DNA of 62,408 bases, the filler included, from Rhizaria sp. SCN 62-66 (taxonomy: Eukaryota): assembly GCA_001724265.1 (NCBI GenBank). It is 4 parts of 4 records of this genome, joined end to end, with 100 filler letters (N's around TTAATTAATTAA, not from the genome) between each part and the next. Parts side by side here need not be neighbours in the genome. Positions count along the whole stretch, not along the records: positions 1 to 21,159 come from MEDY01000703.1; 3 more parts are not named here. One strand, 5' to 3'. Position 1 is the stretch's first letter, and each line of letters opens with the position of its first letter. The notes beneath the pieces are model-generated. The model was given only the letters and a program-made list of their open reading frames with translations. It was not told the DNA's origin and searched no databases. Shown here piece by piece: positions 477 to 44,194 of the stretch. The position numbers and the translations under genes were made by a program.

Positions 477-3400
477 TTACAGTGTACAATCGCTAAGTCC
501 GAGATCCCAGAGCAGTGCAGCAGGAACCTCTACGGTGGGGAACAAAAGTGACAGTAACCACAACAGTTTTCGCGCCAATACAACGTCATCCGCCTCCGAG
601 CCCACAGAAGCGGCATTTGCGCTCACAGTCGGGCGTGCAGCCTCCGTGGCGACGAATAGCGGCGTCGGCGTCGCAACCGTGGCACCCGCAAGCACGAGCG
701 CGGGGTCATGGGCAAGCAGAGACGTCGCCTCCATATGCAGCGGCAGTTGCGCGCGCGCAATCGCAGTCGGCGCTGCGGTGGCTGCAGTCTGCGCAGCCGA
801 ATCAGGAACAGTGGAGTCGTTGGTACCGACTATAGGCACGTTGTGCGTATAGATGGCGTCTGCGAGGCGCGTGATGAACTCAAGGAAAGACGCCCATCCG
901 AGACCAAGGCCCATGCCGTTGGCACCGACACCACTTGCACCACCACTACCAGTGCTTGCACCAGCCCTGGAGCGCTTGCCAGGCTTAGAAGTTGCACCAG
1001 AGCCAGAGCCAGCGCTGTTGGTGGCACGCGCGGAGAGAGGAGCCTTACGTGGCGGCGAGTCCGCAGCACGTTGCTTCCCTCCAGTGCTGTTGTTAGTGTT
1101 GCGTTTACCCTTGGTTGCAGCAACAGGAGCATCTGCGAGCGCAGCTGGGTGGGGGTTCGTACGCGTGAACGCGGCGTCAATCGGGTCTTCACCGTCGTCA
1201 TCATCATCGTCGTCGTCATCATCATCGTCGTCATCGATAGCGCTGTCACCATCGTAGTAACCCTCGCCGTTGAAATCGGCAGCGCTGTCCTTGTTTTTGA
1301 AATAGTTAACGAGAGTGTTGTCGACATCACTATCAGCGACAACGGCGTCATTAGCAGTGGTGGATGCAGTCCTAATCACAGACACATGGTCAGATGTTGC
1401 AGATGTTGCAGCAGTTGCAGACTGGAAATTAGACCCCAAGACCGTGGTCACATTTTCCTTCAGGGCAGCGATCGCGCTGTTGCTCCCAGCTCCTGCATCA
1501 GATTCAGAGTCAGAATCACCGTCAGGCTTGTCAGTGATGTCCACGATTGATACGCGCGCACTCAGCCTCTTGCTATTCCTGGCACTCCTGCGACCAGCGC
1601 CGGTGACCAGCACACCAACAGTAACAGGAACGGGACTTATTGCAGAAGTGGCAACCCGAGCAAAGGAAGACGCAGTCGTATCGTCATCATCGCTGTCGCT
1701 GCTGTCACTGTTCTCGGGGAAGAAATCGCTTTCAAAGCTGTTATCACTATCACCGTCATCGTCTTCGTGGATGGTGTAGCTAGAGTAGTTGTTGTGAGAG
1801 CCCAGCTGCTCAGAGTCCTCGATGTAGTCGACGTCGTTGGCGTCCTCACTCGGACCGAGTCCGAGGAGCACATACGGCGCCATGCCGGCAACTGCCTCAG
1901 CGTAAGACCGCACGCCCATCGTAATACCCGCGCCTCCTGCGCCGCTGTTAGCGCCGCTCATGCCCACTGTCAGCACACTGTTACCGCTATTGCTGCCGAC
2001 GCCGCTGCCCGCGTTGCCATCGCCTGCAATAACAGCGCCGCCGCCGCGCCACGGGACGGCCGTGTGCGTGGCCGCCACGCCCCCAATGGCGCCCGCGAGC
2101 GCCGCCGCCGCACGCCGGCCCGCGCCGCCTTGGCCGCGGGGCGCGCCGGCGGCCAGTGCGGCGCCCGCGCGCGCGGCCGCAGAGCCCGTTCCACCGCGGC
2201 CGCCCGCTCCGGCCTCACCAGACGAGCTCGCACCGGCGTTGCTGCTGCCACTATTGATGTTGCTTGCGGCGGCGTGAGACACGTTCTTGCGTGCACCAGC
2301 TGCTGCTGCTGCGGCGGCCACGGCGGCTGCAGCAGTGACCGTGAGAGCGGCGCCAAGCGCAAGGATGGCGGGGAAGCGCGCGGTCGGCAAAGCGGCGCCG
2401 TAGCCTGCGCGACTGTAGCCCACGCGGAAGCCGCGGGTGTGGCCACGACTATCGCCGCGGCTGGGACTAGAGCTGGTGCCCGCGCGGACGAGTTTGCGCT
2501 GTGAGGAGGGACGCTGCGGTGACTGGGAGCGTGGCCGCGACTGCGGGCGCTGAGGTGACTGCGCGCGCGACTGCGTCTGCTCATTGCCATCACTGCTTGA
2601 AGGCACAGAGGACACCCAGGGGCGTCCCTTGGCCAGGTCCCGGGCAGCCACCCGCGCCTCTGCGCGCGCCCGCGCACGCGCTCGGGCGCGCGCCGGCGGA
2701 CAGGGGTCGTATATGGTCGCCGCAAGCACAGTCACGGGCACAGTCACCGTGACAGGGATGAGCACGTTCGCCCACCCAGAGCGCGCCGTGATAGCCGCTG
2801 CCAGCGCCGCCGCGGCCGCGGAAGGGATGGACCCGCGGCGCGCGGCGGACAGCCCGGCGGAGCGCACAGCGTCGGCGGCGAGGCCCACGCCGCCGGGGGC
2901 AGCAAAGGGCACAGGGACGGGAACCAGCATCGCCACGGCGGGGGGCGGCACGGCATGGCACAACGACGACGGCGCCGGCAGCGGGGGCGGGGCCGGCGCC
3001 GCGGCGGGCGGGCGCGCCGAGAGTGTCGTGGTGGCGCGGCACGCAATGGCGGCGACGGCGGAGAGAGTGCCCGTGGACAGACACGATTGCTGCAGAGACT
3101 GTTGCACGGCGAGAGCGGCGGCTTCAGCATCCTCCTCTTCGCTGTTCTTCGCAGATGACGATGACGACGAACCCTTACCTGCATTGTAAGCGCCAGTAGA
3201 GTTCTTAGTGGAAGCTGCTTTGCTTGCGGTTGCACTGGCACTGGCACTCGTACTTGTGCTTGCGCTAGGGTTTGTGACCGCGGCAACAGCCGCTGCGCTG
3301 GCCGCCGCAGCCGCCGCAGCGCTCACCACAGTCGGCGCTGCCCTGCTCGGCTCCGCCTTGTACGCAGGGCACGTGGGCAGAAGTGATGCAGACCACGTGG

Positions 3401-6400
3401 ATGCGCCGCCGCCGATGCCGCCGGTAGCCGCGGTCGCTGCACGCAGCATCACACCACCACCAGTGCCGCCGCGCGCGCCATTGCCGGCGCCGCTGTTGCC
3501 AGAGGTGGCTGCGCTCGCAGTCGCGCTGGCGTCGACGTTGTTCGCGGCAGCAGTGGCGGCAACAAACGACGCGAGGCCCGCAGCGGCTGCGGCGGCCGTG
3601 CCGGTGCCGGCGGCAGCGAGCGCCAGAGTAAGAGCGGCGCGCGGCGGCAAGGGCGGCGTGACATCAGCCGCGGAGGGCGGCGGCAGCGCCAACGTGAACG
3701 CGGAGATCACATCCCAGGATGTCAGCACCCGGGCGCTTACACCGGAAGGTAGCGGGATCATCCCCGCAACAGCGAAGGCAGCTTTGTTCACACCGCCACT
3801 AGCGTCGCTATTGTTTTTGCTGTTGCTGAGCGCGAGCACAGTCGTCGCGCCCCGCGCAAGTCCCAGAAGCCGTGCCAGGCCCTGTGCGGCAGGCAGCGTG
3901 ACACGGCGCCGCCTCACAGCTGCCACAGTGAGCAACGGCGTCCCCACAAGCGCGGCAGCAGCGCCAGCCCCCGTCTGAACAGTCGCGGCGCCGACCGAGG
4001 CGGCCACGATCGAGGCCGCGGCTGTAGCGGCTTCGGCGGGCGTGCGCGGCGGCTGCAGCGACAGCGCGGCGGCCAGCGGCAGCAGCGCGCGCGCAGTGGG
4101 GGCCGCGGCGGGCGCGGGCGGCAGCGCAAGCGTGGCGGCAGGCGTCACGGCGGTGAGCAGGTGCACGAGCTGCTGGGACTGCAGCGAGCACGGTGATGGC
4201 AGCAGCGGCGCCGCGGTGGCCTGCGCCGCGGCAGCTGCGGCCGCGCCTGCGCCCGCGCCGGGGGCGGATGATGTCGCAGCCGCAGTGGCAACAGCGGATG
4301 CAGCGGCAGCGGCGGCGGGCGAAGAGACGAGCGCGACTGCCGCGGGCGGGAACAAGCCAGGCAATGCTTGGAACACACGCAGAGAAGCAACACGCGCGGA
4401 AGCAACCGCGGCGGGCGTAACTGCGGCGGCAGCAGCGGCAACGGCGGCGAGTGCGGCAGCTGCTGCGGCGCTGGTGCTGCTCGCCAGCTCAATTCCTGCC
4501 GGCTTAGCGGGACTACTGTTGCCGCCGTCACAGCCTGCACCGCTGCCGTTTGCACCGCTGGACGACGCGGTGCCAGCGGAGACTCCTGCCCCTGACGCAA
4601 CCGCCGTGGCCGCCGCAGTTGCGACAAGCGCAGCGACCGCGTCGGCGCAGGCGCGCGCGGAGCCGGAGCCCGCGCCGCCGGGCGCGGTCGACGCGGCGGC
4701 AGCGGCGGCGGGCGCCGGGTCGGAGAGAGCGAGGAAGAGGTCGCGTAGAGACGGCGAGAACAGCGTGAGCACGGCGCGGGGGCGCGGGGTGTGCAGCAGC
4801 GGGCGCAGCGACAGCGGGGAGAGATAACGGGGCACGGCAGTGAGAGACGACAATGCTGAGTTTTTCAAGCCCTCATCCGCATTTTTGTCACTTTCAGGTT
4901 CAGCCTTTGTCTCCGTTTCTGCTGTTGTTGTTGACGTCTTGACCTTGACTTCAGTCGAGGTCTCAATATCGTAATCATCAGCGCTCTTGCGGTTTGTAGT
5001 ATTGGAGTCGCACAGCGCGCTCGAGATCAGAGGAGCGTAAGCTGGAAGCAGCGGCGGCAGCGGCGCAAGCGCAGTGTGCAGGAACGGGTAGAGCCGCTCC
5101 GTGAGCAGAGTGGCAAGCATGCCCGCTGCCTCTGCATCGACCGAGATGACGACGCGACCGCAGGCAGTTACGCTGCGGCTGCCAACGCTCGCACTCGACT
5201 GCGAAACGGTGACGGCAAGGGCGAGCTTAACAAGCACAGCATAGAATGCAGGCAGCGACAGCTGCTCTTGCGGGTTCGAGCGCAGAACAGCGGCTGCGCA
5301 CGCAACCTCACTCTCACTTGCACAGCTGTTTGCGGTCGCACCGCTGCTGCTGTTTACATTGCTGCCGCTGCTGCTGACGAACGTTTGTTGTGCCGGGATG
5401 CGGGCAAGCGCGTGCGCCGCTGCTTGGTGCCACCAGTCGCCCTTCCTGCCGTGGCATGCAATGACACCACTGGCACTGAGGATAGCACCTGCACCGATAT
5501 TGGCCTCAATACCGTCGTTAAGACCAACTTTGCGAGACAGGTTGCTGATGCTAGCGTCTGTGATCGAGTTCGAGGAGTTGGCATTTGTGCTGTTGGAGGC
5601 CGCAGGTGTGGTGATGGCAGCTGCGGCACTCTGCAGCGCACGCCAACGTTCATCGCCCTCACCACCACCACTGGCCAACCCCAGCGATAGCACAAGCCAC
5701 GATGAGGGAAAGTACGGCGGCGGCTGCGCGGGAGCAACGTCTCCGACCGTGGCCGCCGCCGCCAGCGCCACCGACGCTGCAGAGGGGGCGGGGGCAAACT
5801 GTAGCGCGGCAGCGGTGGCTGCTGCGGCGGCCGCGGAGGCAGGATGCAGGCCTGCCGTGGCGGCGGAGACAGCGGCCGCGGAGACGGCAGCAGCGGCGGC
5901 GGTGGCGGCAGCGGGAGCGCTAAAGAAAGCGGGCGAATGGCGAGTCGGCAGTGCAGTAATGAGAGAGGCGATTGCAGGAGGCATCAACGCGAGAGGCTGC
6001 GGCAAGGACGATAGTGATGATGACTGAAGTTCGTTGTTACTATTTGTGTTGTTTTGAGTGTTGGTGTCCCAATGTTGCAAAGTTGCATCAACAAACGCGC
6101 GCCGCCACACGCCCTTCCAACCACCAACACCGATACTGCCGCAAAAACGACGAGACTCTACGTCACGAACAGAAAGACCCCAATGCTGCTTCCCCGCCCG
6201 AGATTTCTGCTGTTGCTTATGAAGCAGTAGGAGCTGGCGGTGGTACAGGCGGTGCGTGCGCAGCAGCCTCTCCAGGTCGATCCCGACCGGCGGGTGCAGC
6301 GGCGCGCGCGGCGGGCGGCGGCGGAGGAAGGGGGGCGCCGCGAGCAGCAGAGCGGTGGCGACCTCCCCGGACACGAGCGCAGGCAACGCGCGGGATGAGG

Positions 6401-9400
6401 TGGTGCCGAGTGCAGAGGTTGCGGTTTGCTGCGGAGGCCCTGAAGTAGCTGCTGTCGATGACGTCCCTGGCGATGACTGCGCTTGAAACGGTGACATCGC
6501 AGGCGGTAACGGGGTCGCAGAGGCGGCAGTCGGAGTCGCTGCGCTCGCCGCAGTGGCTGCCAGCAGCGCAGTCTCCGCAGCAGAAATAGGGAGCAGCGGC
6601 AGCTCAAAGAGCCCGCTGTCGCTGCCGACCATGCTCCACGACGTTGCGGTGCCCGCAGCCGCCGCGCTCGCCGCGGCAGCCGCGGCCGCCGCCTCTGCGT
6701 TGGCAGCGGCTGTAACAGCGTCGTCGTACGCCTGTTTCGCCGCTGTTGCGCGGCATGCTGCGGTAAGCGCGGCCCAAGGCCCCCGGCGGTGCGCGAGTGC
6801 AAGCAGAGAGAACGCCGGCCGCAGAAGCGGGTCGTGGCGTGACAGCACGGCTTTGACTGCCAACAGTCCGCTCGGGGAGAGAACAAAAATCGGCTGGCTA
6901 TCGCTCCCGCTCTTTGCAGCGGTCACATTTGCATTAGTGACAGCTTGGCCACTGTTCTCAGCCTGAAGCTGCTGCTGCTGGTGCTGCTGTGGCTGGTGCT
7001 GGAGCTGTTGTTGCTGCGCAGTCGTGAGCAGCGTCCCTACAGTGGCCCACAACTCCTCGAAGTCCTTCCTGGCTGCCGCCGGTGTCGGCTCCTCCTCCTG
7101 TCCGCCCGCGACCGAGGGCGTGCCAGCCGAGACCAGCGGCAGCACCTCGGGCCGGCCGGTGAACAGCGCGGCGCGCGGCGGGGGCGCCACAGTGTGGGGG
7201 CGTGAATACTCGCGGGCGGCGCGGTCCGCGGTGATACAGCGCAACGCCGCGAATTCGGGGTCTGCGTCTGCAGCGTCCGCACTCACAGTGTTGTTTTGAC
7301 TTCCGCTGTCGTTGGCTACGCAGCAACTGCATTCAGAGATGTTATCATTGACCGTGGAATCATCATCATCGCCATCCTTGTTAGTGAAGAGTTCGCAAAG
7401 CAGCCACTGCTGCTCTGGCACTACAGACGCAGAACTATCCGCATCAGCAGCACCGCTGGGGTCGGATTTAGCGCCGCTATTGTTCGTGTTGTTGTTTTTC
7501 TATGAGATTGCGGCCTTAGCAACCGCGACGGCCTCCGGCGCCGGTCCGTCCCTACTGCCAGTCAGCACCGCCCTGAAGCTCGCGCCCAGCGCTGCCGACA
7601 GCAGCGGGTCCGCGCTGAGCACGGCGCTCATTGCGGCCCGCACCTGCTGCGGCAAACCAGCGGTCCAGCCGAACGCGCTCGCCGCTATGGCCACGCTGCC
7701 GGTCCCAGCGGCCGCTGCGGCCGTTGCGGCGGAGGCAGCGGCTGCGGCAGGGGAAGACGACGCAAGCAGAGACTGTAGCGCTGGGGGCGGCGGGGAAGCT
7801 GGCGCGAGGGGCAGCGGCAGCGCGGCGGGGGTGGCGAGGTTCTGTGACGACGCTCCCGCAGCGTAGCCGGATAGCGCCACGCTGCCGCTGGCATTGCTCG
7901 CCGAGCTTGAGCCATTCGCGGAGTTGGACACATTGCCGCTGGCGCTGCTGCTGTTGCTGCTGCCCGTGCTACCGTTGCTCGCGAGAGGAAGGCGGAAGAG
8001 CGGGTGGCCGTGTTGGTTTGCAGACAGCGCACAGTCGAGAGCAAGCGTCGTGAGAGGTGGGGCGCGGTTGGTGCCGAACAGGCGCGGCGGCGCTGGGGCG
8101 GCGCTGTTAGCAGAGCGAGCAGGAGGACGCGGGGACAAGGCAGGGCCCGCAGTCTTAGTCCTGAGAGCAGTCGCTATTGTTGTCCCACTGAGAGCGTTCT
8201 CACCAGTCTCCTTCAAGGTCTCAGTGATACTCTCGTTCCCGTCGCTTGTAACAGCGACGATCTCGGGATCAACGCTAGTTTTTGGCTCAACTTCTTCATC
8301 AATGACAAGCTCAGACTCAGCAGCTGCATCAACCACACCAGAGCTTGCGTCAGCTTCGGCGACAAGATCAACAGTAGCATCCGTGTTTGCCTCAAGATGG
8401 CTTTGGTCACCAGCTGCCTTATCATCATTACCATTGCTCACAGTCGCTTGCGCCGCCGTTGCCTTCGTCTTCTTCGCAGTTTTAGTCTTCGGACGCGGCA
8501 ATTGTGGCGGCGCGGGCGGAGCTTTGGGCACAACCACGGTAAGCACTGCTTGCCCAAACGCCCCCGTCACTGCGGCCGCGGCGAGCAGCAGCCCGATCAC
8601 AAGCGGGGGCGCGCGCGGGTCCGCCGCAGCCGCGCGCGCGAGGGCGCAAAACCGCGCGGCTGTGGCGGTCGACGCCGCGGGCGCAAGCGTGGCGGCCGGC
8701 GAGGTGAGCGGGAGCGCGGGGACGGGCACTGTGGACGTGGCGGCGGCGGCCACCGCGGCTGCGGTTGCGGGAGCAATGTTGAGCGCAGCCGTGCGCTGCT
8801 GAGCGGCCTTTGAGGTGCCGGTAGTCGTCAGTGCGCTGTTGCTGTTGCTGCTATTGCTTCCGGATGAGGTGCTGGGCGCAGGAGGCGGGTGAGTGAATGA
8901 GGCAGCGAGCCACAATGTGTTGACGCTGGCAGCACGTGCGGATGCGCCTCGCTGCTGCTGCTGCTGCTGCTGCAAACCGTTGGTCGCGCTGGTGGCGTTG
9001 TTGCTGTTGCTAAGTGTATCAGATGATGTCGTTAAGAGAACGACACCTTTTTTGCTCGCAGCCATGGCTGCTGTTGCTGAGAGTCCAAGCTCGCGTCCCT
9101 GCTCAAACTCATCACTATGAGAAGCATCTGTGTGACTGTGCGAGTTGTAAGTGTTTGCAAGCACTACCTTCCCCAGCCCGACCGCTGCCACAGCGCCCGC
9201 GTGCACGAGCACGGACGGCGGCATCGTCTGCCACCACTCAGCGGCCGCGGCCGCCGCGGGCAGTCCGTCGGGAAGACTCCTTTCGGTGACGGCCCAAGCG
9301 CCACTCGCATCACCGGCAGAAGAGAAAGTACTCTGCCTGAGACACACACGGCGCGGCAGCGCGTTGAGGTAGCTCGCCGTGATGACGCGCATCGCGAGCC

Positions 9401-12400
9401 TGCGCAGCGTGAACTCGAGACGGAGCACCGCGGCCACGTGCCTCGGCAGTGGACGCAGCACGACGCCGCCGCCAATGCCCGCGCTAGCAGCGGCCGCCGC
9501 AGCCGCAGCCGCCGCGGCGGTGTTAGTCGCGGTCGCGGTCGCCGCGGCGGGGGGCGGGTGGCCCGCGGCGGAAGAAGCCGCGGTGACAAACGCCAACAAG
9601 GCCGCCATCGCGGTCGGGCTTGGCGGCGGCGGCAGGAACACGTCGACGTCGATCGAGTGCGGGGCAATGTGGCTCGGCCACTGGCACGCTGCGCCCGCGC
9701 AGACGCCGGTGTAGCTCACAGTCGCGGCTGCGGCTGCGGCCGCGGCTGCAGACGCGGCGGAGTTGGCGCTGCTGTAACTGCTGCTGGGCTTGCTGGTGAT
9801 GATAGCAGGAACTGTAATCGGAACGTTGGCAAGAAGACCACAGTGAAGACACACAGGAGGAGGGAGAGCTGCTGCAATGGGAGTGAAAGCAACAGTACTT
9901 GCGTCAGTCACAGTGTTACTCGCCCCATTCGTTGCGTCGAGGCTAGTGGTCTTTGCGTTAAGATTGTTGCTCGTAGCCGTCGTTGTGTTGGAAGATTTAG
10001 TTGTTTGTAAACGAGCCAAATAGTAGCGACTTGTGCCGTGTTTATCACCAGTCGTCGTCGTATTGCTATTGACAGGTAGTGAGGGTACTGTAGCGGCAGG
10101 GTCAACCGTCGGTGTTGCAAGAGCCTTTGAAGTGTCGGCGAGGTCCTTTGATGGCGAGCCAATGGACGACAGCACCCCCCCACTTTGTTTCACACTTGTG
10201 CCTTGCTGTTGCTGTTGTTGCTGCTGTTGTTTCTGTTGCTGGTGCTGCGCCAGCACGTGCTGCGTGCGCGCACGCTTCAGCGCAAGCGCCTTCTTCACGA
10301 TCTGCGCTTTAAGCGCCAAGTTGGGCACTGTCTCAAAGCTTGCTGCCATTGAGGGCGTCATATATCCCGCATTGCGCGAACCAGCGTTCGCGTTGCTGTT
10401 CGTAAGCGCAAGCCCACCGCTGGCGGCCGCAACAGCAGCTGCCATCACAGTAGCGCCGGCGCTCATGTTTGAATTTGCACTCGATTTCGCGACTCTTGCT
10501 GTGGGATTGCTGGTGTTGCCGTCCTCACTGATCAAGCGAGGCACGCGAACGCGTGGCGGGGCCACGGCCAGCGGGTCACACGTCTGCAGCAGCGTCCCCG
10601 AGCTGGGGTCAGGCACCGATACTTCCCACGCCGCCAGCGGGTCACCGCCGGGAGGGCCGAGTAAGTCAGCACATGTGTCGCCGTGCCCACAGCTCTTGTT
10701 GCTGTTGCCATTTGGCTTATTAATGAGCGCGAAGCGCAGCCCACCACCGGGAGCAGGCGGCGCTCGGCCACCGATCGTGGTCGTGGTCACAGTGACAGAG
10801 CCTGAACCGGTAGCGGGCGCAGACGTAACCTTGTCACCAGCAGTCGCAGTGACGCCACAACCGCAGCCGCCATTGTTATGAAGCGAGCAGCCACTGGTCC
10901 CAATAGCGGCTGCCACAGCTGCAGCCGCAGGGGCCGCTGCCCAAGCGACGACAACAGCTCGATTGACTCCACGCGCGGTGCCATTCCCATCGGCGCTGCT
11001 ATCAAGCCCCTGGCCGTGCTCCGTTCCCGACGCAGTGCTGTCGTTGTCGCCGTTGTTTTGACGCGGCTTTGAGTTGGTCCACAAACGAGTCGCCGGGTCC
11101 GGCGCCGCGCTCCAGCCCTGCGCGCTAACGTGCGCGCTCAGTGGCGGCTGAGAGAAAAGGCCGCGCGCCTGGCGACGCGGGGAGCCCATGCCCAGTCCTC
11201 CGCCAACTGCATTCGCGCTGACATCGTTCGCGCCACGCTCAAAACTTGCACGGTAAGACGTGTTTGTTGACTCAGGACCGTCTGCACCTGCATCAACGCC
11301 ATCGGCAACTGGGGCCTCAGCGGCTTCAGCCGAAGTGCCGGCACGCGTCGCCGTCGCAGACAGCAGTCTCTGCGTCAGGCGCGCCCGCACACCGGGCCCT
11401 GCGATGCGCGTCGTGCCACCGCCCAAGTGCAGCAGCGCGCCTGTGCCACTGGTGACGCCGGCGCTGTTGACGCTTACACCGTAGCCATGCGAGCCGGCGA
11501 CTTTGGCACCGGTCGCGTTTCCGGTCGCATGATTTGCGTTTGCATTGCTATTGGAATACGCATCGTCGGAGTCAATCGTGGCGAGCGTCGCAGGCAGCGG
11601 AAACGGGAGTTGAGTGACACCCTTAGACTCAACCTCTGCCCGCCCACGCGCATCACGGTAAGTACCAGAGTTGCCTCCCACGAGTACTGCGTTGATCACA
11701 TTGGCGCCTGAACTGCTGCTAGTGTTGGATAGCAGAGCGTCTGCGGCCGTGTCGGCGCCGACGCGACAGTAGTGGTGCGTTTTGTGCTCAGCCGGCACAT
11801 GCAGGCTGCTGGGGCCATCGACTGCAGGGATGTTGGCAAGCCGGCGACGCGCGGCGCGGCGCTGAGCAGCGACAAGCAGAGCAGCAGCCGCAGTGAGGCC
11901 GGGACCCAAGTGCGAGTGCGCGTGCGGCAGAGGATTGCTGCTACCCGCTTTCACACCGTTACCCTGGCTGGCGGTGGCGTTAACAGTGCTGTTACTTGCG
12001 CTCGTGCGACTAGTAACGCTGCCGTCGGCTGACGTGTTGATCCTGAGATTGTTTGTGGCGCGAGGGTTGACAAATGAAGTGGTCGCAGCGCGGGCGATCG
12101 GGGGCGGCTTGATCTTCAGTTCTTGTTGCTGTTGTTGTTGCTGCTGCGGAGTGACGAGAGCTGTTGTTGCTGTCGCAGCTGTTGACGCTAACACTGACAC
12201 AGGCGCGGCGGTGATAGGGCCTATCGCCGTAGTAGTGACATCAGTGCTACCACGACTGTTCATGTTGGTGACGCTGTTGCAAGTGTGCGTATGCGTGACG
12301 GAGCTGGAATTTGTTGAGACAAACCCAGTTGCAGTCGAAGTTGGCGCGGCTGAAGTTTTCGGCACAGCAGAGACTGTGCTCGCTCTAGTGACCGTTGCAA

Positions 12401-15269
12401 CAGCGTTTGAGCCTGTCATGGAGACAGTATCACTCGCAGTGTCACGATTTCTTTGGATGTTGGCGTGGCCGTTACTATCCGCATTTGCGTTACTAATGTT
12501 GAGCGTTCCAGAAGCGGCAACAGGTTTTGAACTCAAGACAGATACAGTCGTAGACGGAGCTATTGGTGTCGTTACAGAATCGCCGACGGCAGTTTTCGGG
12601 TCAGAGCTTGGACCTAGCAGTGTTGCTGCAAGCTTCTGCGCGGCCAGCAGCCTTGCCCGCGCTGCCAACTCTTCGCCGTCTGCGATATCTCCAGCGTTTG
12701 CAACATTGGAACTCGCCACGCCACTGTTGTTAACATTGCCGTTGGCATTATCAGGGAAGTTAGACATCGTCGGCGCGCGTGAGTATGCAAACACCTCCTT
12801 ATCAGACGCCCAATATCCTCCGGCAGCAGTATTGAGCTGTCCAATGCTTCTGTATCCGCCACTCTCATCCTTGCTCTTGAGTGCGGCTGCCGTCGCCGCC
12901 GCAGCAGCGTCCGCCGCCGCCGCCTCAGCCCGGACGCGCCCGCTGTTGCCTAGCATCGACGTCGCCGCGGCCGTGGCGGCAGCGGTGGCGGCGGCGCCCT
13001 CGTAGCCCAGCCGCTGCACCATCGCGGACGACAGTAGCGGTAGCGGCGGGACCGTCTGGCGCGGCGTCCGCAGCTCGCGCTCGAGCTCCAGCTGCTGCGC
13101 CTGGCGCTGCTGCTGTTGCTTCTTGGTCAAACCACTCATCAGTTGTTGCTGTTGGGTGTCTTGCTGCAATTGTTGCTGCAGCTGTAGCTGCTGTGATTTG
13201 ATGAGACTCGCAGTAACAATCTCACTTGTGGCAGCTGAAGTGCTGCCTGTGTAGGTGCTCGCATCGGTGCTGTCCGCTGTGTTGACAGCAGCAGATACGG
13301 ACGGAGGCAGCGGCTGTTGCCGCGGCAGCACAGACGCAACCTCAGTCCACGGCGCAGACGCCAGCGCTACTGCGGCATGCGTCCGGCGCATCCGCGTCGA
13401 TAGAGAAGCATCGCTAATGGCAGCGGAGTCGAAGTTACCAGAGCTCGAAGACATGCCGTTGTTAGTTGCTCTTGCGGTCATTGCAGCAAGCTCGAACCCA
13501 AGCCCAAACTCCCCTGCGCCAGCCGCGTCCTCGCCTTGGTAGTTCTCCTGTCCCTCTGCAGTGTGCAGCCGCGACAGGTCCAGCACGTCGCTGACCGTGA
13601 GCGGTGCCGTGGCGCTTAGGCCGGCCATTCCCGCCCCGGGCGCCGCGGCCGCAGTGTCTGCACGGCGGCGGGTGGCCTCGTACGTGTCGTAGCGGTCTGC
13701 GTACGCCCTGGGAGGCACGGCGGCGGCGCCGGACAGCAGCAGCTCGTTAACGCTGTCGTTCGCGTCCGCTGCCGCGCTGGCGCCGGTGGGCGCGCTGGCG
13801 CCGGTGTGAGTGGCCGGCGGCGGCAACAGCTTCGCCATTACTCTCCCGCCGCCGTTCTTACCAGAGGTATGGCTACCAGCGTTTGCGTTGTTACTGCTGG
13901 AATTGTAGGTATTGCGGTAGACCGAGAGAGGATCCGTGGCGAGAGAGGCCAGGTACGTGTGTCCCTGCCGGTCCCGGTCACGCAGCTTCTCCAGCACCAC
14001 CATCACCTGCCCCTGCCGCTGCCCCGTCCACCGCAACTTCGCTTCCACGCTCTCGTACAGCGCGAACAGCTCCGCGGTCACGCGCGCGCGCAAGGCCGCG
14101 CGGTGACGGCCACGGTCGCTTGCGGCGCGTTCCGCCGCGGCCGCAGCAGTGCCCGCGCCCGCTGCGGCGACGGCGACGGGAAAGACGTCGAGCAGGGGCA
14201 GCGGCGGCGGCAGCTGCGCCGCCGCGGCCTCGGCCACGACGACCGCGGCCGCGGCGGCTGCCTCGGAGAGCGATACTGCCGCCTTGGCAAGGGTCGACCG
14301 CAGCAGCGCGTGGCGGTGGTCGCAGTCAAAGCGGGCGCGCGCGGCCAGCGCGGCGTCGGCATTGGCGATGGCGGAGGCCGGCGCGGGGGCGGCGGCGGCC
14401 ACGGCCGAGGCCGCGGCGGCGGACGCGGCGGCTGCAGCGGCCACAGCAGCGTCGGCCTCAGCCTTAAGGATCTCAGCGGTCTTCGCAGCGGGCGGAAAGT
14501 AGCGACGCGAGGGCGCGACACGACTGTCTGCGGCCGCAGTCGATGACGAAGATGCCGAGGCAGAGTCTGCGGTAGCTGACGGCGATGACGGAGACGAAGG
14601 TGTGATTTGAAGCGCAATAGCAGATGCGGCAGAGGCGGTGCCAATGCGACGGATGTGCTCGGCGAGGCTCAACGGGCGCGGCACGTGCTCGGCCACAATG
14701 GCATTTCTAGCGGCCGTCGCAGCATCAGCTTTAGCAGGAGCGGGAGTCGAGGCGCTGGTGCTCAGAGCAGCGGGGGTGCGCCCAGTATCAGTTTGCGTGC
14801 TGTTCTGCGCATTGTTAGCGCGGGACTGAACGACATCAGAGCCGCTGCGAGTGCTTGTGGGGTTATTGGCCGAGTCGGGGATAACTGTGGCGTCTGAGAG
14901 AGGAATGCCAAGCTGCGACTCGAGAGATCGCAGCCGGGTCTCGAGACTGATGCACTGCAGCTCGCTCGTTAGCAGCGCGTCAATCATCGGTGGAATGGCA
15001 ATAACAAGCGCAGCGGGGCACTCCAGAAGGGGAAGTGTGGTGCGAGGCAAAGAAGATGCAGATGCACCAGAGCTAGAGAAATAGCCAGCACCAGGGCCAA
15101 CACCACTTGTTGCTGTGTCGGGAGCTGGTGCTGACAAAAGGCGTAGGAGTAAGTGCTCTGCGGGGGAGGAGGGGGGAAAAACATGCAAAAGATGGTCTAA
15201 AACCAAGGCTGAGTCGTTCTCCCCGACCCCAGACGCGCCGCGGTGCGGCGTGTCGGAGCGGCTCGACAT
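477..15269 (-). CDS. Giant (~4930 aa) Ala/Ser/Gln-rich low-complexity protein of unknown function, with one in-frame TAG at 7500-7502
   Basis: ORFs 7500..15398 and 477..7421 are in the same frame and are separated only by TAG plus 26 open codons (KNNNTNNSGAKSDPSG...). The likely start is ATG 15269, just after a TTTTCCACAG acceptor-like tract. The gene ends in TAA. No domain recognised. Confidence 0.7.
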
Positions 15270-16134
15270 CCTGGCGCTCTTCAGTAACCGAAGCTCGCTG
15301 TGGAAAAACAAGACTTGATGAAGCACAACAAGGACAAAAGTGAGAGGCATATTATTAAAAGTTGAATGAGAAAACGGTACAGTTTGCATTGTAACCAAAT
15401 TTCACAGGGCCTGACGAAGACTTTCGAGCACGCATAACGCATTTCGTTCGGCGACTTCCGCCCACGGTCAACAGCTTCGCCAGAGCAACTGCACATTTCT
15501 CAAATGGAGTGCTAACGATGATCATTAAGCTCAATCACACAGCGCTGTGACTTCTTGAAGACAACCTCGTCAGAATTCTGTTGCAATATGCAGCTCTGCA
15601 GTTGGTTATTGTCGTGCATTCGTCCTTGTCACTTGGTTCATGCGCGCTGTCGGACATCCACGTATGCCGAAGAGACCGACGCTTGTTGGGTGTTAAAGAC
15701 ACACAGATGATATGTTATGAGAAACAGAGGTTGTTATAACATGTTTTAGGGGCTTCATTACTGGTTTGCCTTTGTACATTTCTTGATGCCATAACTGTGC
15801 TGTCTATCAGTCAACTTTAGTAGGCGTCCCAGAGCTGCGGCATTGCATCCTGCTTTGCTTCAGGGCATTTTTATCCATGACACGAAACTAAAACTTTATT
15901 TATACGTTGTCATATGGTGGTGTTTGCTGTAGCTATTGCATATTCCGCTCTATGCTTGCTTGGCATTGATGACGCGCTTCTGCTCCTTTGCAACGCCAGG
16001 TCAATTTGAGTCAACATACCACATGATGAGCGCATGCCACAATGCTATGTTACACACTTGCATTCAAACCACTGACAACTTGAAACTCGCATTTTTATTC
16101 TTATTTTTTCAAATATAGCCGGCTTCCCACTGCC

Positions 16135-19100
16135 ATGTCTCATCCGTCCCATACCAGTGTGGAGATGGGGCACATGGGCAACAACGTGGAGGACGACTTT
16201 ATCCGCATCGCAGGTCTCGATTACACGGCAGAGGAAGTCGACCCTTTGCGCGCGCTCTGGCGGAGCGTGAACAATCCCGAATCTTCTGACGTGGACCGCG
16301 ACACTGCGCGCGTGGCTTTCTAGAAGTAGCGGACGCGCCTCAAGCAAATCGTCGCCGCGCGCGCGGCGATGCAGCGCCGCCACTGGGGCAACGTCTCTTG
16401 GCTCGACATCGTGTTGCAACGCTGGCTTACGCCCGTTATTACGCTTGCGTACCGCCACACCGTCACTGAGAGCGACGTCCCCGCGCTGCCCCACGCTGAG
16501 GGCGCGGCCGGCGTGGCGAACGACTTCAACCGCGAGTGGCAGCGCGAGATCGAGCGCGCCGTGCGTCTGCGCCAGCCGCCGTCGGTTGTGCGCTCGCTTG
16601 TACGGAGCAGCATCAAACCTTTCTCCATGATTGCGCTGTACGAGGTATTGCTGTACGGAGCGACGTTCATTTCTCCGTTTCTCATCGACGCTCTCACGAG
16701 CTTCTTCGAGCGCGCGGGCAACGGCGAGCCCACAGACGCGAGCGAGGGCTTACTCTACGCACTGGGGCTCGCGCTCGTTGCGCAGATTGCCGCGGCTATG
16801 GCTGTGTTCAAGTTTTTCTACATCACGATCTTTGGGCAGCGCATGCGCTCCATGGTGATGATGACCGTGTTCGACAAGTCGCTTGCCATCGCGCCCTCGG
16901 CCGCGGCGCAGACGACGACGGGCGAGGTCATGAACCTTATGGGCAACGACGCGCAGAGGCTGGCCGGCGTTGCGATGGTCACGCACATGACTTGGATTTC
17001 ACCCACCGTGATCTTCGTGTGCATGATGCTTCTGTGGACCAAGATTGGCCCCACTGCGCTCGTCTCCATTGCGCTGATGCTCATGCTGCTTCCGATGCAG
17101 ATGCTTGTCGCGCGCCTGGTGGGCAAGAACCGCCGTGCGACGCTCGTGTTCACTGACGCGCGCGTCAAGCAGGTCAACGAGATGCTGCAGGGCGTGCGCG
17201 TGATCAAGCTCTACGCATGGGAGGACGCCGTGCGCCGCACGCTGGCGGCGATCCGCGAGAAGGAGCTCCGCTTCATCCGCAACGGCCTGCTCTATCGTAT
17301 GCTTAACCTCGTCCTGCTGTTCGTGTGGCCCGCGTTAGTGACGTACCTTACCACGGTGGCGTACGCGCATCTTGGCAACGATGAGTTGGATAGCAACACC
17401 ATCTTCTTCATCCTCTCCTTCCTCAACGTCGCGCGTCCCCCTATTACGCTTATGCCCAACATCATGCAGTCGTTTGTCGAGTTCTTTGTCGCTGCACGCC
17501 GTGTATCCACGTACCTCACGCGCGCCGAGCTCCCCCAGCGCCCGCTGCTCCCCGCGCCGGCGCGCGCGCTCGCGCCCCAGCCGACCTCTACCGCGTCCAC
17601 GGCGATTACTGCGACCTCGGCCGGTGCGGGCAGGGGTGCGGTGCAATATGCTGCCGCCATGCCCGCACCGTCACAGGCGACGCTGAGCGCGTCCCTCGCG
17701 CTCGTTCCGCCCTACGCCACTCGCTTCGCCGTCGCCATGCGCCACGCCGCCTTCTCCTGGTCGCGCGCGCCGCTCTCCAGCGACGCCCCGCCCGTGCTCG
17801 CCGACGTGTCCCTCGCCCTGCTGCCCGGCTCGCTGACCGCGGTTGTGGGTCCCGTCGGCGCGGGCAAGTCGTCGCTGATCTCGGCCATTCTGGGCGAGAT
17901 GCACCTCCACGCCTCCGGTGACTGGGCGCGCGCCGCGGGCGCCGTCCCGTCGGGACTCACCGAGCAGGAGCGCGCGCTCTGGCATCTGGCAGCGCGCGGC
18001 GAGGCGCGCGCACCAGAAGCTGCGCCCGCCGTGCCCACGCAACGCCAGCGTCCTAACGCAAACGTGTTCAGCTCCGCGACTGCGGCCGCCCGCGGCGCAG
18101 GCACTGGCGTCGAGAGAGAAGAGCCCTGCGCGCTCTCGCCCGACACTGGGCTGCCGCTGCCGGCGTCGTTCCTGGAGCTGCCCGCGGCCGCGTACTCGAC
18201 GGCGATGCCGCCGCCGCCACCGCTGGCCGCGGGGCCCGACGGCGTGCTGCTGACCGAGCGCCCCGCGGCGGGCGAGCTCGACTGCTCGGACCCGCGCGCA
18301 GTGCTGCAGCTTGTCTGCCTGCGCGGCCGCGTCGGCTACCTCGCTCAGGACCCGTGGATCGTGCACGCGACCGTGCGCGACAACATCACGCTCGGCCTGC
18401 CGTACTCGCGCGCGCGCTTCGACGCCGTCGTCGCCGCGGCGGCGCTGTCGCCCGACCTGGCAATCCTGCAGCACGGCGCCGACACGGTCATCGGCGAGCA
18501 GGGCGTGAACCTTTCGGGCGGCCAGAAGGCGCGCGTCGCCATGGCGCGTCTGCTGTACCGCGCGGACCTGCTCGACGTGGTGCTGCTCGACGACCCCTTC
18601 TCCGCCGTTGACATGGGCGTCGGCAAGCACATGTGGGAGAAGTGCGTGCTGGGCGTGCTGCGCAACAAGACGCGCCTCATTTGCCTTAACTCGCACCTCC
18701 ACTTCCTGCGCCAGGTCGACGCCATCGCTGTGCTCGACACTGCTGCCGGTCGTGGGGCCTCCGCACCGACGACGCCCGTTCACGCCAACACTCAAGCTGC
18801 TCACGTACACGACATTGATCTCGACCTCAGCGTCGATTCAGGCGCCAGCCCTGTCGCTGGCGCTGGCGCAACCAATGCTGCGGTGGGGCTTGTCTCGGAC
18901 ATGACTCGCCGGCCCGTGACGACGATTGTTGCGCAGGGCACGTATGCAGAGCTGGTGGCGGCGGACGTCGAGTTTTCTCGCTTCGAGCACCACAACGAGG
19001 ACCACGACCCCGAGGAGCAGCCCGCGACTGGAGATACTGACAACGAGGACGACGAAGACAACGACGATGACGAAAATGTTCTGCCCGAACCTGACAATAC

Positions 19101-21159
19101 TGCGATCGCGCATGAGATCGTTGATGTCGAAGAGTCGGAGGCCGAAATCGACGAGAGCGAGTCTAAGAGTGATGCTAAAGTCACATCGCCCGAGACCGTG
19201 CGCCGTAGCTCTCTTGATGCACCTCGTGAGCGTGGGCGCGCGGCTAGTTCTGAGAAGCGCGGTCCCCATCATAACGCCGCGCAACCGCAGCGCCCCAAGG
19301 GTCACGGTGCGCCTGCCGGCGGTCGCCGGGGAAAGATTGGCGAGGAGCGGATGGTTAAGGGCGATGTTGGCCTTGGCGCCTATGCAACCTACTTCCGTGG
19401 CGGCTCATCCTTCCAGGTTATGGTGCTGAAGCTCAGCGTGATGGTTGTGCTGGCGCTGCTGGCGCAGTCGACGCGCATGCTGGTCGACTTCTGGGTTCTT
19501 GAATGGGCCAACGACTCTCCTGAATCTCCGACAAGCGCACACACACTGTCGTGGTGGGAAGGCACCAGTGGCATCATCATCACGTCATGCTTTGCTGCGC
19601 TGTTCCTGCGTACGTTCTCGTTTGTGTACACAAACATTTCGGCCTCGCGCAGTCTGCACGACAGCAACTTCGACCGCGTGCTGCACGCGCCCATGGGATG
19701 GTTCGACGTCACGCCGCTGGGCCAGATCATGAACTGCTTCTCCAAGGATATGGACGCTGTCGATGTCACTGTGCCTGATAGTCTCGTCACCGTTGCGCAG
19801 CAGACACTGATGCTCGTCGGTATTGTTGTGCTCGCCTGCATGTCGACCCCTGTGTCCTTGTTGCCTTTCGCCGGCATTGCTGTGCTAATGGGCTTGGCAG
19901 TTGTTTACTTCCGCCGCTCGCTCACACAACTCAAGCGTTGTGAGTCCCGTTCCTTTTCGCCTGTGTACGCCTCTTTCTCGTCGGCGACTAAGGGTGCGAT
20001 GACGATCCGTGCGATGGCGCTTATGCAACAGTTTACGGCGACGCACGAGGCGCTGCTGGACGTCAACACTAAGCTTTGCTATATCTTCAACTTTGTCCAG
20101 CGCTGGCTTTCGTTTCGACTTGATACGCTCTCTTGCGTCTACATCTTTATTGTTGGCGCGCTCGGCGTGGCATTGCGCGGCAGCGTCAATCCCCGCGTCG
20201 CCGGTCTCGCTGTTGTTTACGCGTACCAACTCACAGGTCTGCTGCAGTGGACCGTGCGCTCCGCGCTTACGCTGCAAGCCGCCTTCACCTCCGTTGAACG
20301 AATCGATCAGTACGCACACATCCCGCAAGAGCCTGGATACCGCACCACACCTGACGCACGCATTGCCGTGCGCCGTGCCGCTGCTGCCGCTGGTGTTGAT
20401 CTGTCATCATTCCCCATCGAAGTTACCAATGGTACTCCGCACATCGCGACGCACTCTGTCACCGTTTCCGCGCCCTCCGCGCCGTCCTCACCCGCTCGCG
20501 CCTATGCCCGCTTTGAGGGCGATGATAGTAGCAGCGTTGTGTCTGAGGCTGCGCTGACTGCCGCGGCGGTTGAGGACGCGCCGACGCAGCTGTACGGATG
20601 GCCGTGGCGTGGCGCGATGCGTTTCACGCGTGTGACGATGCGGTACCGCTCCGACCTGCCTATTGTCATTCATGACCTCTCGTTTGCGCTGCCGCCCGGC
20701 AAGAAGGTTGGCATCATCGGCCGCACCGGCGCAGGCAAGTCCTCACTGCTACTCATCCTGTTCCGCATGGTGGAGCTCTCCGCGGGCCGCGTTGAGATCG
20801 ACGGCGTCGACATCTCTACTCTCGGTCTCGGCGACCTCCGCGCGCGCATGTCTATTATCCCACAGCAGCCGACGCTATTCTCCGGCACTGTGCGCTACAA
20901 CCTCGACCCCTTCGGCCACCACAGCGACGCCGAGCTGCTGACGGCGCTGCGCCGCGTGCAGATGCTCGAAGTCGTCGAAGCCATGCCCGGCGTGCTGCAG
21001 GCGCCCGTCAGCGAGTTCGGCGGCAACTTCTCGCAGGGCCAGCGCCAGCTGCTGTGCATCGCGCGCGCGCTGCTGCGTAACAACAAGATCATCGTGCTTG
21101 ACGAAGCCACGGCCGCCGTCGACCCGGCGACTGACGCGGCGATCCAGAGCACAATCCGC
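16135..21159 (+). CDS. ABCC/MRP-type ABC transporter (TMD-NBD-TMD-NBD), 3'-truncated by the contig end, with two in-frame TAG at 16321 and 16327
   Basis: Walker A GPVGAGKSS, signature LSGGQKARV and LLDDPFSAVD in NBD1; GRTGAGKSS, NFSQGQRQL and IIVLDEATAAVD in NBD2. The upstream ORF 16135..16323 (gccATG, GC3-rich) is in frame with 16369.. Confidence 0.93.
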
Positions 21160-21259
21160 NNNNNNNNNNNNNNNNNNNNNNNNNNNNNNNNNNNNNNNNN
21201 NNNTTAATTAATTAANNNNNNNNNNNNNNNNNNNNNNNNNNNNNNNNNNNNNNNNNNNN
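21160..21259. other. Artificial contig spacer
   Basis: N44-TTAATTAATTAA-N44, giving stops in all frames. Genes are truncated on both sides. Confidence 0.97.
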
Positions 21260-22819
21260 CAGCAGCGCGTTAAGCGTCTGCCGGTGGTAGCTCTCCTGCT
21301 TCTTGCTGCGCGCCCCGCCCACCGCGTCGATCTCGTCGATGAAGATGATACACGGCGCCTTGGCCTTGGCCGCGGCGAAGAGCTCGCGGACCTTCTTGGC
21401 GCCAGTGCCGACGAACATCTCGTCAAAGCTAGAGCCGGAGATGAAGAAGAACGGCACGCCGGCCTCCCCCGCGACGGCCTTGGCGAGCAAGGTCTTGCCG
21501 GTGCCGGGGGGCCCGGTGAGCAGCAGGCCGCGGGGGATCTCGGCGCCCATCGAGTTGAACTTCTTGGGGTTCTTGAGGAACTCGACCAGCTCCTCGGCCT
21601 CGGCGCGCGCCTCGTCGCAGCCCTTGACGTCCGCGAATCCGACCTTGCAGTCCTCGGGCGAGACTTCGGAGAAGCTGTCCCCGCCGCCGCCGACGCCGCG
21701 CGGGCGCAGCATGGCTCCGATCAGCAGCACCAGCAGCACCATGGTCGCGAGCATCGACAGCGACGTCAGCGCGCCGACGACGGAGAACGGCATGCGGCGC
21801 GCGCCAGTTGTCGCCGGCACCGCGGCGGGGGAAGCAGCCACGTCCGAGGCGCGGGTCACGAGCGCGGCGGCGTCGGCCGTGGGGGCGCGCGCCGCGAGCG
21901 CCTGAGCCCAGGGCGCGTGCGCGAGCGTGGGAGGCACACCCGAGCGGAGGCCGCCGAATTGCTGCGCGCGCGCGGCCGTGTAGAGCGCGCGCATCGTGGG
22001 CGTGCGGGGGAAATACCCGGCCTCGTAGCGGCGCAGGAAGGCGTTGGAGGAATACTCGGCGAGCTGCTGCGCAAATGTCTCCTGCAGCGCTGCGTTGAGC
22101 GGGTCCGCGTTGGCGCGGCGCTCGAGGTCGAGCAGCAGGCGCACGTAGGGGTCCGTGGTGGCGTCGCCGTAGAGACGCGCGATGGCGGTCACGGCGGGCA
22201 GATGCGACAGCGCCGACCGCAAAGCGGTGGTGGACCGTAGAGTCCGGAAGCCGACAGTGGCGGAAAGAGACGCAGCGGCGGTGGCAGCGGGCGCGGGACC
22301 AACGCGCGTTAAGAAGAAAGACGCGGAGGAGCGGGCGGAGGAAGGCGAAGTGGAGGCCGAGGACGACGAAGTCGAAGACGAGGCAGACGACGAGGATGCA
22401 GAGAGAGCGGCGACGGTGGAGGCGGGGCGCACAGGACCGAGCATAAGAGCGTCGATCAAAACTGCCGCGTCAGACGCCGACACTGACAGCGCTGAGGCGG
22501 TCGCAGACACAGACGCAGACGCTGAGGCGGCGACTGAGGATCGCGAGGAGGCGGTGGAGCTGTAGTGGCGCGCGGCGGCAAGCTCGGCGGCGCGGCGACG
22601 AGGAAAGCGCGCGGGGACGCCCAGCGGGGCGCGCAAAGGGACGGTTGCAGCAACGGCAGGCGCGGCCGCAGAGGAGGAGGATGAAGCGGCAGCGGCGAGC
22701 GTGAGAGAAGTGATGGGGCGAGCGAGGGCAGCGGGAGCGCCAACGCTGTCCGCCTTTGCGGCAAGCGTCAAGACGCTTGGTGCAGATCCGCGGAGGATGG
22801 CCTTACCGCGATGCAACAT
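21260..22819 (-). CDS. YME1: Mitochondrial i-AAA protease YME1/FtsH family, 3'-truncated
   Basis: [45 protein letters not shown] and [12 protein letters not shown] motifs; a single TM segment; long Ser/Ala/Arg-rich presequence-like N-terminus from ATG 22819. Confidence 0.88.
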
Positions 22820-23749
22820 CCGTGCGGGCGTGGCGGGTCTGATGGGAGGACGAGATGGGTGGGTGGGGAATAGGCGGAGAATGATGCCACGTGAGAGGCG
22901 TGGTCGAATAAAGATGTCGATTGAGAGCAATACATTGTACAGAGAGAAAAAACACAAACAAGAACAATAAAACAACAGAAATAAAACAGATGAAACATCA
23001 CAAAGGCTATTGTGACGTTATCTGGTAGTCGCTGCAGAACGAAATCGGTTGCAGACTTTGCCCCACAGCCCCGAGCCACAAAAAAAGCTCCAGAGCGGCG
23101 GTCTGGACTTGGCCGCCAATTGTCACGTGTTACAGTTTGCAAAATGTCGGGCATACACCAAGAGAAAAGAAACTGTACAGAAAAATAAGTGGTTCAAGGA
23201 ATAAATTGTGGCGTGAGTTACTTGAAGAGAGATATTTGATAAACAGACATGTTAGGTTATCTGTATTGAGAGAGGATATCAAGTCAACATCACGCGTGAA
23301 ATTAAAGTGAGAGTTGACTGAGTGACATGATGGATGGGCGAGGTTGACGTTAAGAAAAGTGCACAAAAAGGACAAAACCAGAAGACACATTGCAAAATGT
23401 GGCGTCGGCACTCATTTGGCGCTGGGAAATCAGCGATAAACGATCGTGCGCGCGACAGGCGCGGTGACAGGTGACGGCTTGTGGATGGAGAATGAGAGAC
23501 ACAACCAAAACGGATACGTATGGTAATGCAAGTATAACGAGGCGAGAACAATACATGAAACAGAAGACAAGATACGAGCTGTTATTCAACACAAGCAAGT
23601 CAACCATTGCTCAACGTGAGATGCTTTGTGGATGAACATGACGAGGCTCGAGGTTTACACATGCTTTACTTTCGTAAAAGTGGGGTTCATTGACACTCTT
23701 TCAAAGTGCAGCTTGCATGGGAGCTTGGATGTGAACTTAGATCTACAAC

Positions 23750-30751: not shown

Positions 30752-31588
30752 CTGTTAAAAGAAGAAAGTCAGACAAAAGGAAATCAGAGCGTTCGAATGT
30801 TGATGTGAGCTAGATTGGAAGAGGTGGGGCGAGGAGAATGACAAGCTGGAGAGGATTGGGAGGAGCCTGGCAAAGAGGCGTATGAGCGCTCATTATTATG
30901 TTTCAACAAAAAGCACAAACAAATATATAAAGTCAACGCTTCAAATCAGCCCAAAAACTTATTAAGATGCGCGTGACAAGGCTACGAAGCCCCGTATACA
31001 GCCGGGGAAACGTGGCTTTTGCCGCTCCACGCGCTGCCTAAATGGCCGTTGAGTCACAATTTGACATGCACACCATACAAACAGTGTTGAAGCGAAGGAA
31101 AAAAAAAAGAACTATCTTTAAAACAACGAGTGAAGTACAAATCATAAGGGAGAAACTCCTTTCATCCGCTTTACAGGTCGAAATTTCTCTGTTTCGTTGG
31201 CTACTCAAAAAAGGATGGGCCGTGGACGGACAGTGCGTCCGTCGTTGGAGGTCTAGATTTCTGGGGACTAAAAGGATTACCTCAACTCCTCCTTGGTTTG
31301 AGGTGAGACTCCGACGAATAGAGACGAGCTGATTCCAGAAATGATTGATCACAATCGCCAATGAGGTTACTTTATGTATTTTATGTGTGGACTCTGTACT
31401 TTTCGTGTTATGCGGTGTTCGCGGCACCAACAACTCGATTAACCGTTCTTGCTGGACTCTTCCGATCTCAAACCACTCACAATCGCTCTTCTGACCATTT
31501 CCACACTGCTCGCCATGATAATGCTCTCAATATGCTTACATTTACTCTTCCTTCGTGTCATATCAACATACACTAAAGCCTGCTTAGC

Positions 31589-31664
31589 TCAGAATGTCGA
31601 CGTCATGAAGTCGAACACGTCAGTGCCGCTCTGCTGCGACAACTGCTCCTGACTCCCCGCATCG

Positions 31665-31721
<57 letters not shown>

Positions 31722-36862: not shown

Positions 36863-36962
36863 NNNNNNNNNNNNNNNNNNNNNNNNNNNNNNNNNNNNNN
36901 NNNNNNTTAATTAATTAANNNNNNNNNNNNNNNNNNNNNNNNNNNNNNNNNNNNNNNNNNNN
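36863..36962. other. Artificial contig spacer
   Basis: N44-TTAATTAATTAA-N44. Confidence 0.97.
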
Positions 36963-43012: not shown

Positions 43013-43025
43013 GCCAGCACCCGCG

Positions 43026-44119: not shown

Positions 44120-44167
<48 letters not shown>

Positions 44168-44194
44168 ACACCACCAGGAGTGGAGTTTGCGGCT

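Follow-up and report, generated by a model that had tools for sequence, protein, structure and literature searches.

Possible translation of UAG at very low usage in GC-rich contigs of a wastewater eukaryote

Whether a TAG in the middle of a long reading frame ends translation there or is read as an amino acid is the question raised by a stretch of DNA assigned to Rhizaria sp. SCN 62-66 (assembly GCA_001724265.1). The window, by which we mean the whole stretch that was analysed, is 62,408 bases long and consists of several contigs, with N runs at 21160-21259, 36863-36962, 39164-39214 and 56309-56408. Its GC-rich pieces (1-21159, 21260-36862 and 56409-62408; GC about 0.60-0.80) hold two genes that contain TAG in frame: a giant open reading frame (ORF) with one such codon, referred to here as site 1, and an ABCC/MRP-type ABC transporter gene with two. 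A reading made from the sequence alone had proposed that UAG is a reassigned sense codon of low usage, with UAA and UGA kept as stops. The explanation that we favour, with a probability of roughly 0.55, is likewise that UAG, although used very rarely, is decoded as an amino acid; this would account for all three sites. The TAGs are real in the DNA, in-frame coding continues behind each of them, and one of them is common to two species. Translation probably passes these codons, and the decoding of UAG may be a property of the code as a whole and not just of these three sites.

The giant ORF lies on the minus strand, where the frame from 15398 to 477 contains a single internal stop, the TAG at 7500-7502 (codon 2,633 of 4,974; residues ..AVAKAAIS*KNNNTNNS..). 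This codon separates an upstream half of 2,629 codons (7503-15389), low in complexity and opened by an ATG at 15389 (the true start is more likely an ATG near 15269), from a downstream half in the same frame (477-7499) of 2,340 codons and the TAA at 477-479. The claim that two ORFs of more than 2,300 residues share one frame and are joined by a single TAG is thus confirmed. After the TAG, the next in-frame ATG does not come until 6632, 290 codons further downstream, and GC content drops to about 0.50 over the 180 nt behind it. Measured by a per-codon coding score trained on the codon usage of the window's other genes, the frame scores about +0.3 per codon throughout a stretch that begins 80 codons ahead of the TAG and ends 180 codons behind it, while the other two frames are negative; over the 60 codons directly behind the TAG the score is +0.26. 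By our own arithmetic, a random frame at about 67% GC meets one stop per roughly 44 codons, and the 2,340 open codons behind the TAG are therefore not a matter of chance.

An assembly error, with CAG as the genuine codon, would be the simplest way to dispose of these sites, and independent DNA contigs speak to it directly. Our comparison covered four sequencing runs, all as Logan contigs, and statements on RNA hold among the pieces listed. At site 1, a contig from run X3 (DNA, from another study) spans 6713-8109 and one from run X4 spans 6708-7511, both with 0 differences from the window; because these independent contigs are identical to it, the TAG is real. The TAGs of the ABC gene are likewise kept, with 0 differences, in an independent DNA contig over 14787-16539 and in an X4 contig over 15644-16339. 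The X4 contigs over the TAG sites stop 9 and 10 bases past a TAG (at 7511 and 16339), which may be chance or an assembly branching point.

Homology gives a further indication that the downstream half of the giant ORF is coding. A full HMMER search with 1,199 residues spanning site 1 returned one match among 1.84 billion representatives, a protein (P0025) from a 7,135-nt metagenome contig that aligns from residue 118 after the TAG. The two share the motifs EPTPAA.R.D.E.LW and VKAVLSRHDPLLR, both upstream of the first methionine of the downstream half (residue 290 after the TAG), and at the position of that methionine P0025 has threonine. We take it from this match, which begins ahead of the first methionine and lacks it, that the downstream half is coding and has no start of its own. 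Residues about 820-986 of P0025 are rich in arginine, cysteine and glycine, as in a wrong-frame reading, which suggests that its contig carries a frameshift, an intron or an assembly indel. Beyond this match the protein is an orphan: no Pfam family was found in either half, and an exact look-up of the window's ORFs in the protein collection found none of them present. If the ORF is one gene, its product has about 4,970 residues and is rich in Ala, Ser, Thr, Asn and Gln.

Contigs from a polyA RNA library cover parts of both halves, at 9876-10149, 13192-13683 and 14477-14780 upstream of the TAG and at 579-940, 2253-2508, 6497-6771 and 6960-7378 downstream of it. In the same library the depth is 0 in the intergenic bin 15074-15740, a bin that is covered by the DNA runs.

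The second gene, on the plus strand, allows a comparison between species. Its main ORF (16369-21159) matches Pfam ABC_membrane and ABC_tran and runs off the contig end. Ahead of it lie 78 codons (16135-16368) that form either an N-terminal extension or an upstream ORF (uORF) plus spacer, and the TAGs stand among them as codons 63 (16321-16323) and 65 (16327-16329) of the frame that the ATG at 16135 opens; there is no other stop before the transporter, and Pfam finds nothing in the extension. The sequence-only reading had placed two further TAGs within the ABC gene: they do exist in frame, but they lie upstream of ATG 16369, which is where the database has the protein start. Two database proteins from other assemblies, P0002 (100% identical) and P0003 (82% identical, from a sister species and encoded on a 21,346-nt contig), both begin at that second ATG, which agrees with the presence of a stop-like codon ahead of it in those assemblies as well. 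P0002 is 100% identical over the first 500 residues and shows a few differences beyond (e.g., ..LLTERPAAGE.. against ..LLAERPAAGD.. in the window), so that a second strain or haplotype, slightly different from the window's, is present in another assembly.

A metagenome scan with the ABC protein gave two loci, one of which (L002) is a distant ABC gene, whereas the other (L001) is a useful sister-species contig of 2,508 nt that includes 637 nt upstream of ATG 16369. A genome scan for the gene brought up 3 bacterial ABC genes only, which are irrelevant here, and in a scan of viral contigs none of the 70 pattern matches was confirmed. Window and L001 share 81% amino-acid identity over 614 codons. 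Upstream of 16135 the two are unalignable (132 ungapped differences in 186 positions), and exactly from the shared ATG at 16135 onwards they align without an indel. Over the 62 codons before the first TAG they differ at 11, 6 and 28 sites in codon positions 1, 2 and 3, a third-position bias that marks a frame as translated. L001 keeps the first TAG, and in place of the second it has GAG (Glu). Between the first TAG and ATG 16369, a spacer of 15 codons contains no indel; 12 of its 45 nt differ, with three synonymous third-position changes among them. In runs X4 and X5 a second contig carries the L001 letters C, C and G at 16200, 16212 and 16215, from which it follows that the two species co-occur and that the sister's ABC extension is present in the polyA RNA library.

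It is at this point that a change to the messenger RNA (mRNA) has to be weighed, either by removal of the TAGs within tiny GT..AG introns or by U-to-C editing. An upstream in-frame GT together with the TAG's own AG can frame both sites, giving candidates of 24 nt at 7523-7500 and of 18 nt at 16312-16329, and no RNA contig that bridges the TAG at 7500 or at 16321 is among the pieces listed. L001, however, has GA in place of the GT that would open the 18-nt candidate, and the 18 codons before the first ABC TAG differ from L001 at 5, 3 and 12 sites in positions 1, 2 and 3 (counted by hand), which is coding-like substitution. The sole recognisable intron in these contigs, at 35052-35265 on the minus strand, near the 5' end of a coiled-coil gene, serves as an internal control, and as far as the sequence by itself can tell it is a conventional spliceosomal one. 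It is 214 nt long (GTACGT..AAAG), has a GC content of 0.42 between flanking exons of 0.73 and 0.78, contains 13 stops over three frames, is in phase 2 and is not a multiple of 3; its removal joins the frames exactly. This intron accounts for the lack of any ATG in the first roughly 440 codons of the frame 31589-35101. The stretches at the TAGs, 18 and 24 nt long and with coding-like substitution at the ABC site, are unlike it. Frequent tiny introns would also sit badly with ORFs of 1,600 to 2,600 codons that have no other interruption, and no 18-nt or 24-nt deletion appears among the indels listed, a list that does not show RNA cover at the sites. The many joints listed in the run contigs were rejected, being low-complexity cross-matches with sides of 20-30 letters. 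A tiny spliced intron, which the sequence-only reading had itself named as an alternative, is thereby disfavoured, and we regard any removal or alteration of the TAGs in the mRNA as highly improbable.

How the window's genes end provides the next line of evidence for UAG decoding. There are six true gene ends, three TAA and three TGA, and none is a TAG, exactly as the sequence-only reading had listed them. The TAA codons close the giant ORF (477-479, minus strand), a gene for an EGF-like protein of 2,333 residues (23750-23752, minus) and uS8/RPS15A (62316-62318, minus); the TGA codons close the coiled-coil gene with the control intron (31589-31591, minus), cytochrome c1 (36568-36570, minus) and a second coiled-coil gene (61866-61868, plus). 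Two of the six stand at conserved C-termini, which upholds a further point of that reading: uS8/RPS15A ends exactly at the residue that matches residue 130 of 130 in yeast S22, and the alignment of the cytochrome c1 fragment with solved homologues stops no more than about 5 residues short of their ends. All six ends are followed by non-coding DNA. Behind all six TAA and TGA ends, the coding score falls to between -0.04 and -0.34 per codon and more stops occur within 60 codons; behind all three TAGs, it lies between +0.17 and +0.26 per codon, and the next 60 codons are free of TAA and TGA. When all six frames of the GC-rich contigs were scanned, just two ORFs that scored highly were closed by TAG, namely the giant gene's upstream half and the extension of the ABC gene. 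Other listed ORFs that end in TAG were taken as spurious, since they overlap genes assigned to the opposite strand.

The observations with which this paragraph and the next one open weigh against the decoding of UAG as an amino acid. Just six gene ends are a small sample from which to say that TAG never terminates, and that part of the sequence-only reading is accordingly less secure than the parts that stand, namely that the frames code on, that one TAG is conserved and that no gene end is a TAG. In-frame TAG is also scarce, at 3 in 12,555 codons against 93 in 25,088 off-frame triplets, an approximately 15-fold depletion that would be expected also of a codon that still terminates. The lack of in-frame TAA and TGA is partly circular as a contrast, given that the ORFs were delimited by these very codons, and the window contains 0 tRNA genes and no eRF1. 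A rival is leaky or programmed read-through, in which UAG would still be a terminator throughout the genome, passed through inefficient release or site-specific suppression by near-cognate tRNAs; the genes concerned would then give some full-length product, and the codon would be ambiguous and not reassigned. Read-through has in its favour that in-frame TAG is avoided as if it were still costly, that coding continuity fits it as well as it fits full reassignment, and that the six gene ends form too small a sample to establish that TAG is never a terminator. On the other hand, a gene of about 4,970 codons that relied on read-through halfway along would lose the greater part of its translation, and for the programmed type three TAGs in just 2 of about 8 genes is a high density. 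The base after the TAG is A in three of four cases (TAG-AAA, TAG-AAG and TAG-CGG in the window, TAG-AAG in L001), and TAG-A is a non-leaky context of termination in eukaryotes. Predicted folds downstream of the three TAGs are unremarkable (z = -2.0, +0.2 and +0.8), with no shared structure. On balance we consider read-through unlikely, though it deserves to be taken seriously.

The remaining adverse points concern the two loci separately. The differences in the ABC spacer (12 of 45) are not significantly fewer than those at fourfold-degenerate sites of the main ORF (105 of 330; P = 0.29), and a start at ATG 16369 would presumably give a normal N-terminus of a short ABCC protein, going by what we take to be the ABCC4-type form. 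By itself, the ABC locus may thus be compatible with a conserved-peptide uORF that ends at the TAG, and this is a live rival there. Site 1, for its part, has no orthologue covering the TAG, and all runs hold the same strain with 0 differences, so that a recent fixed nonsense mutation is possible. Combined, these points amount to an explanation from two ordinary causes: a 62-codon conserved-peptide uORF followed by a transporter that begins at 16369, and at site 1 a gene that is truncated, or was struck by a nonsense mutation not long ago, with its downstream half still undecayed. The shared start of P0002 and P0003 at ATG 16369 agrees with it, as do the conservation of the first ABC TAG, expected of a uORF stop, the spacer's lack of conservation significantly above that of synonymous sites, and the identity of the strain in all runs, which leaves site 1 without a population or orthologue check.

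The same explanation nevertheless needs two TAG-specific coincidences within 43 kb. Conserved-peptide uORFs are short ORFs upstream of a main ORF whose peptide and stop are conserved, and the ABC extension resembles them in being short and conserved and in ending at a conserved TAG. Unlike them, it is in frame with the main ORF, from which it is separated by 15 indel-free codons, a TAG/GAG pair among them. As a uORF it would contain three ATGs in frame and stop, again in frame, just 15 codons ahead of the main one, and its peptide is best conserved in the N-terminal and middle parts and weakest beside the stop. The spacer, free of indels and with 27% differences, stands apart from the unalignable DNA upstream of 16135, and the second ABC TAG, a sense codon (GAG) in the sister species, would be left unexplained. 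A uORF cannot explain site 1 either, and as for a recent mutation there, the strain that carries this TAG is found in runs dated from 2015 to 2025 and in at least three studies. We therefore hold a pair of ordinary causes to be quite unlikely.

If UAG is decoded as an amino acid, the ribosome would read it so in both the window organism and its sister species, most likely by means of a cognate or strongly suppressing tRNA. UAA and UGA would do the terminating, and UAG would be very rare in frame. The giant ORF (15389..477) would then be a single gene with about 4,970 codons, and the start of the ABC transporter would lie at 16135, giving it an extension of 78 residues. As for the amino acid, the sequence-only reading had found glutamine and leucine both fitting. 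Our data neither support nor exclude these two; the sole comparison of a TAG with a sense codon pairs it with GAG, and this one data point, in a variable region, offers a weak hint that UAG may stand for glutamate.

We know of no code in which UAG means glutamate while UAA stays a stop. In an oligohymenophorean ciliate, UAG is reportedly read as glutamate. The study concerned establishes that UAA and UAG code for different amino acids in that ciliate (PMC10553269), and in Blastocrithidia nonstop UAR codes for glutamate (PMC12153298), so that both, the former on the assignment just given, provide precedents for UAG as glutamate. Both also reassign UAA, however, whereas here UAA ends three of the six genes.

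Among codes in which UAG alone is reassigned, the closest parallel is the sainouroid rhizarian exLh, where UAG means leucine and UAA and UGA are stops (Panek et al. 2017, PMC5304391). The pattern here is like that of exLh in that only UAG occurs in frame and true ends are UAA or UGA, and also in that the organism is a protist outside the ciliates whose only record is contaminating or environmental sequence. The usage is different: exLh has 384 in-frame UAGs in 71 genes, which end in 56 UAA and 15 UGA, and its UAG maps to conserved leucines (PMC5304391), whereas we see 3 in 12,555 codons, at poorly conserved positions and with GAG as the sole sense counterpart. The main text of that paper makes no mention of GC content.

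Two other systems share the uncoupling of UAG from UAA. In the fornicate Iotanema spirale, UAG codes for glutamine (PMC5304391) and the meanings of UAG and UAA are uncoupled as they are here. The Fornicata have been characterised as anaerobes whose mitochondrion-related organelles are reduced (PMC9161772), while the GC-rich contigs of the window encode cytochrome c1 and thus belong to a different kind of organism. In phyllopharyngean ciliates, UAG is leucine or glutamine and UAA the preferred stop, as deduced from metagenome-derived genomes, in two of which suppressor tRNAs were found (McGowan et al. 2024, PMC11687900). Our case is similar in showing a UAG-only pattern in eukaryote DNA of metagenomic origin; it differs in that UAG usage is widespread in those ciliates and in that the genes here are long and GC-rich, with a conventional intron of 214 nt. 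UAG-only reassignments of nuclear codes are thus reported from a handful of lineages, and in exLh and the phyllopharyngeans the codon is already common (PMC5304391, PMC11687900). Within the code-variant and activated-sludge literature, no GC-rich wastewater eukaryote was described among the matches listed.

Should UAG decoding hold, the window would add a further case of a known but rare code type. A more specific proposal, which at present must be called doubtful, is that the DNA comes from an unsampled GC-rich aerobic wastewater lineage of at least two species, in which UAG would have been reassigned at an early or low-usage stage, possibly to glutamate, with UAA and UGA kept as stops. If this is true, it would be a UAG-only reassignment in a lineage other than ciliates, Fornicata or the sainouroid. 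A UAG that is translated and yet avoided about 15-fold, and shared by two species, would offer a rare view of stop-codon capture in a GC-rich genome while it is at an early or intermediate stage, and with it the "ambiguous intermediate" and "codon capture" models could be put to the test. The matter is of practical importance as well: gene calling under the standard code splits or truncates such genes, and P0002 and P0003 are both without the 78-residue extension.

The host of the GC-rich contigs is, judging by the cytochrome c1 and uS8 that they encode, an aerobic eukaryote. Its genes are very long, Ala-rich and low in complexity, with few introns. Words of 3000-12000 turn up in metagenome runs that several studies made on bioreactors, wastewater and activated sludge and, in part, in a polyA metatranscriptome. 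Contigs of 113 kb and 278 kb carry relatives of the window's proteins. The closest named relatives of the cytochrome c1 are those of oomycetes (61% identity), with metagenome proteins at 66%, and its Atlas matches are generic cytochrome c1 clusters only; the PDB matches are generic too. Against PDB chains it scores about 1e-30 with animal, plant and fungal proteins; the weakest listed chain is 7tgh (7e-10), which we take to be the Tetrahymena (ciliate) complex. Assuming that identity, the protein is nearer to the animal, plant and fungal chains than to the ciliate one, which is a further difference from ciliates.

The window also includes a low-GC contig (GC 0.35-0.50) that may come from another organism than the GC-rich contigs. 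It carries a complete ribosomal DNA (rDNA) unit at 41421-54292 on the plus strand, with small-subunit (SSU) rRNA at 41421-45865, 5.8S rRNA at 46915-47066 and large-subunit (LSU) rRNA at 47173-53935. Ten matches to group I intron models occur along it, of which four lie in the SSU, five in the LSU and one just after the LSU match. Three ORFs in this rDNA (42027-42554, 48209-48907 and 50774-51247) match PF05551, the zinc-loop domain of His-Me/His-Cys-box homing endonucleases, one of them slightly below the Pfam cut-off.

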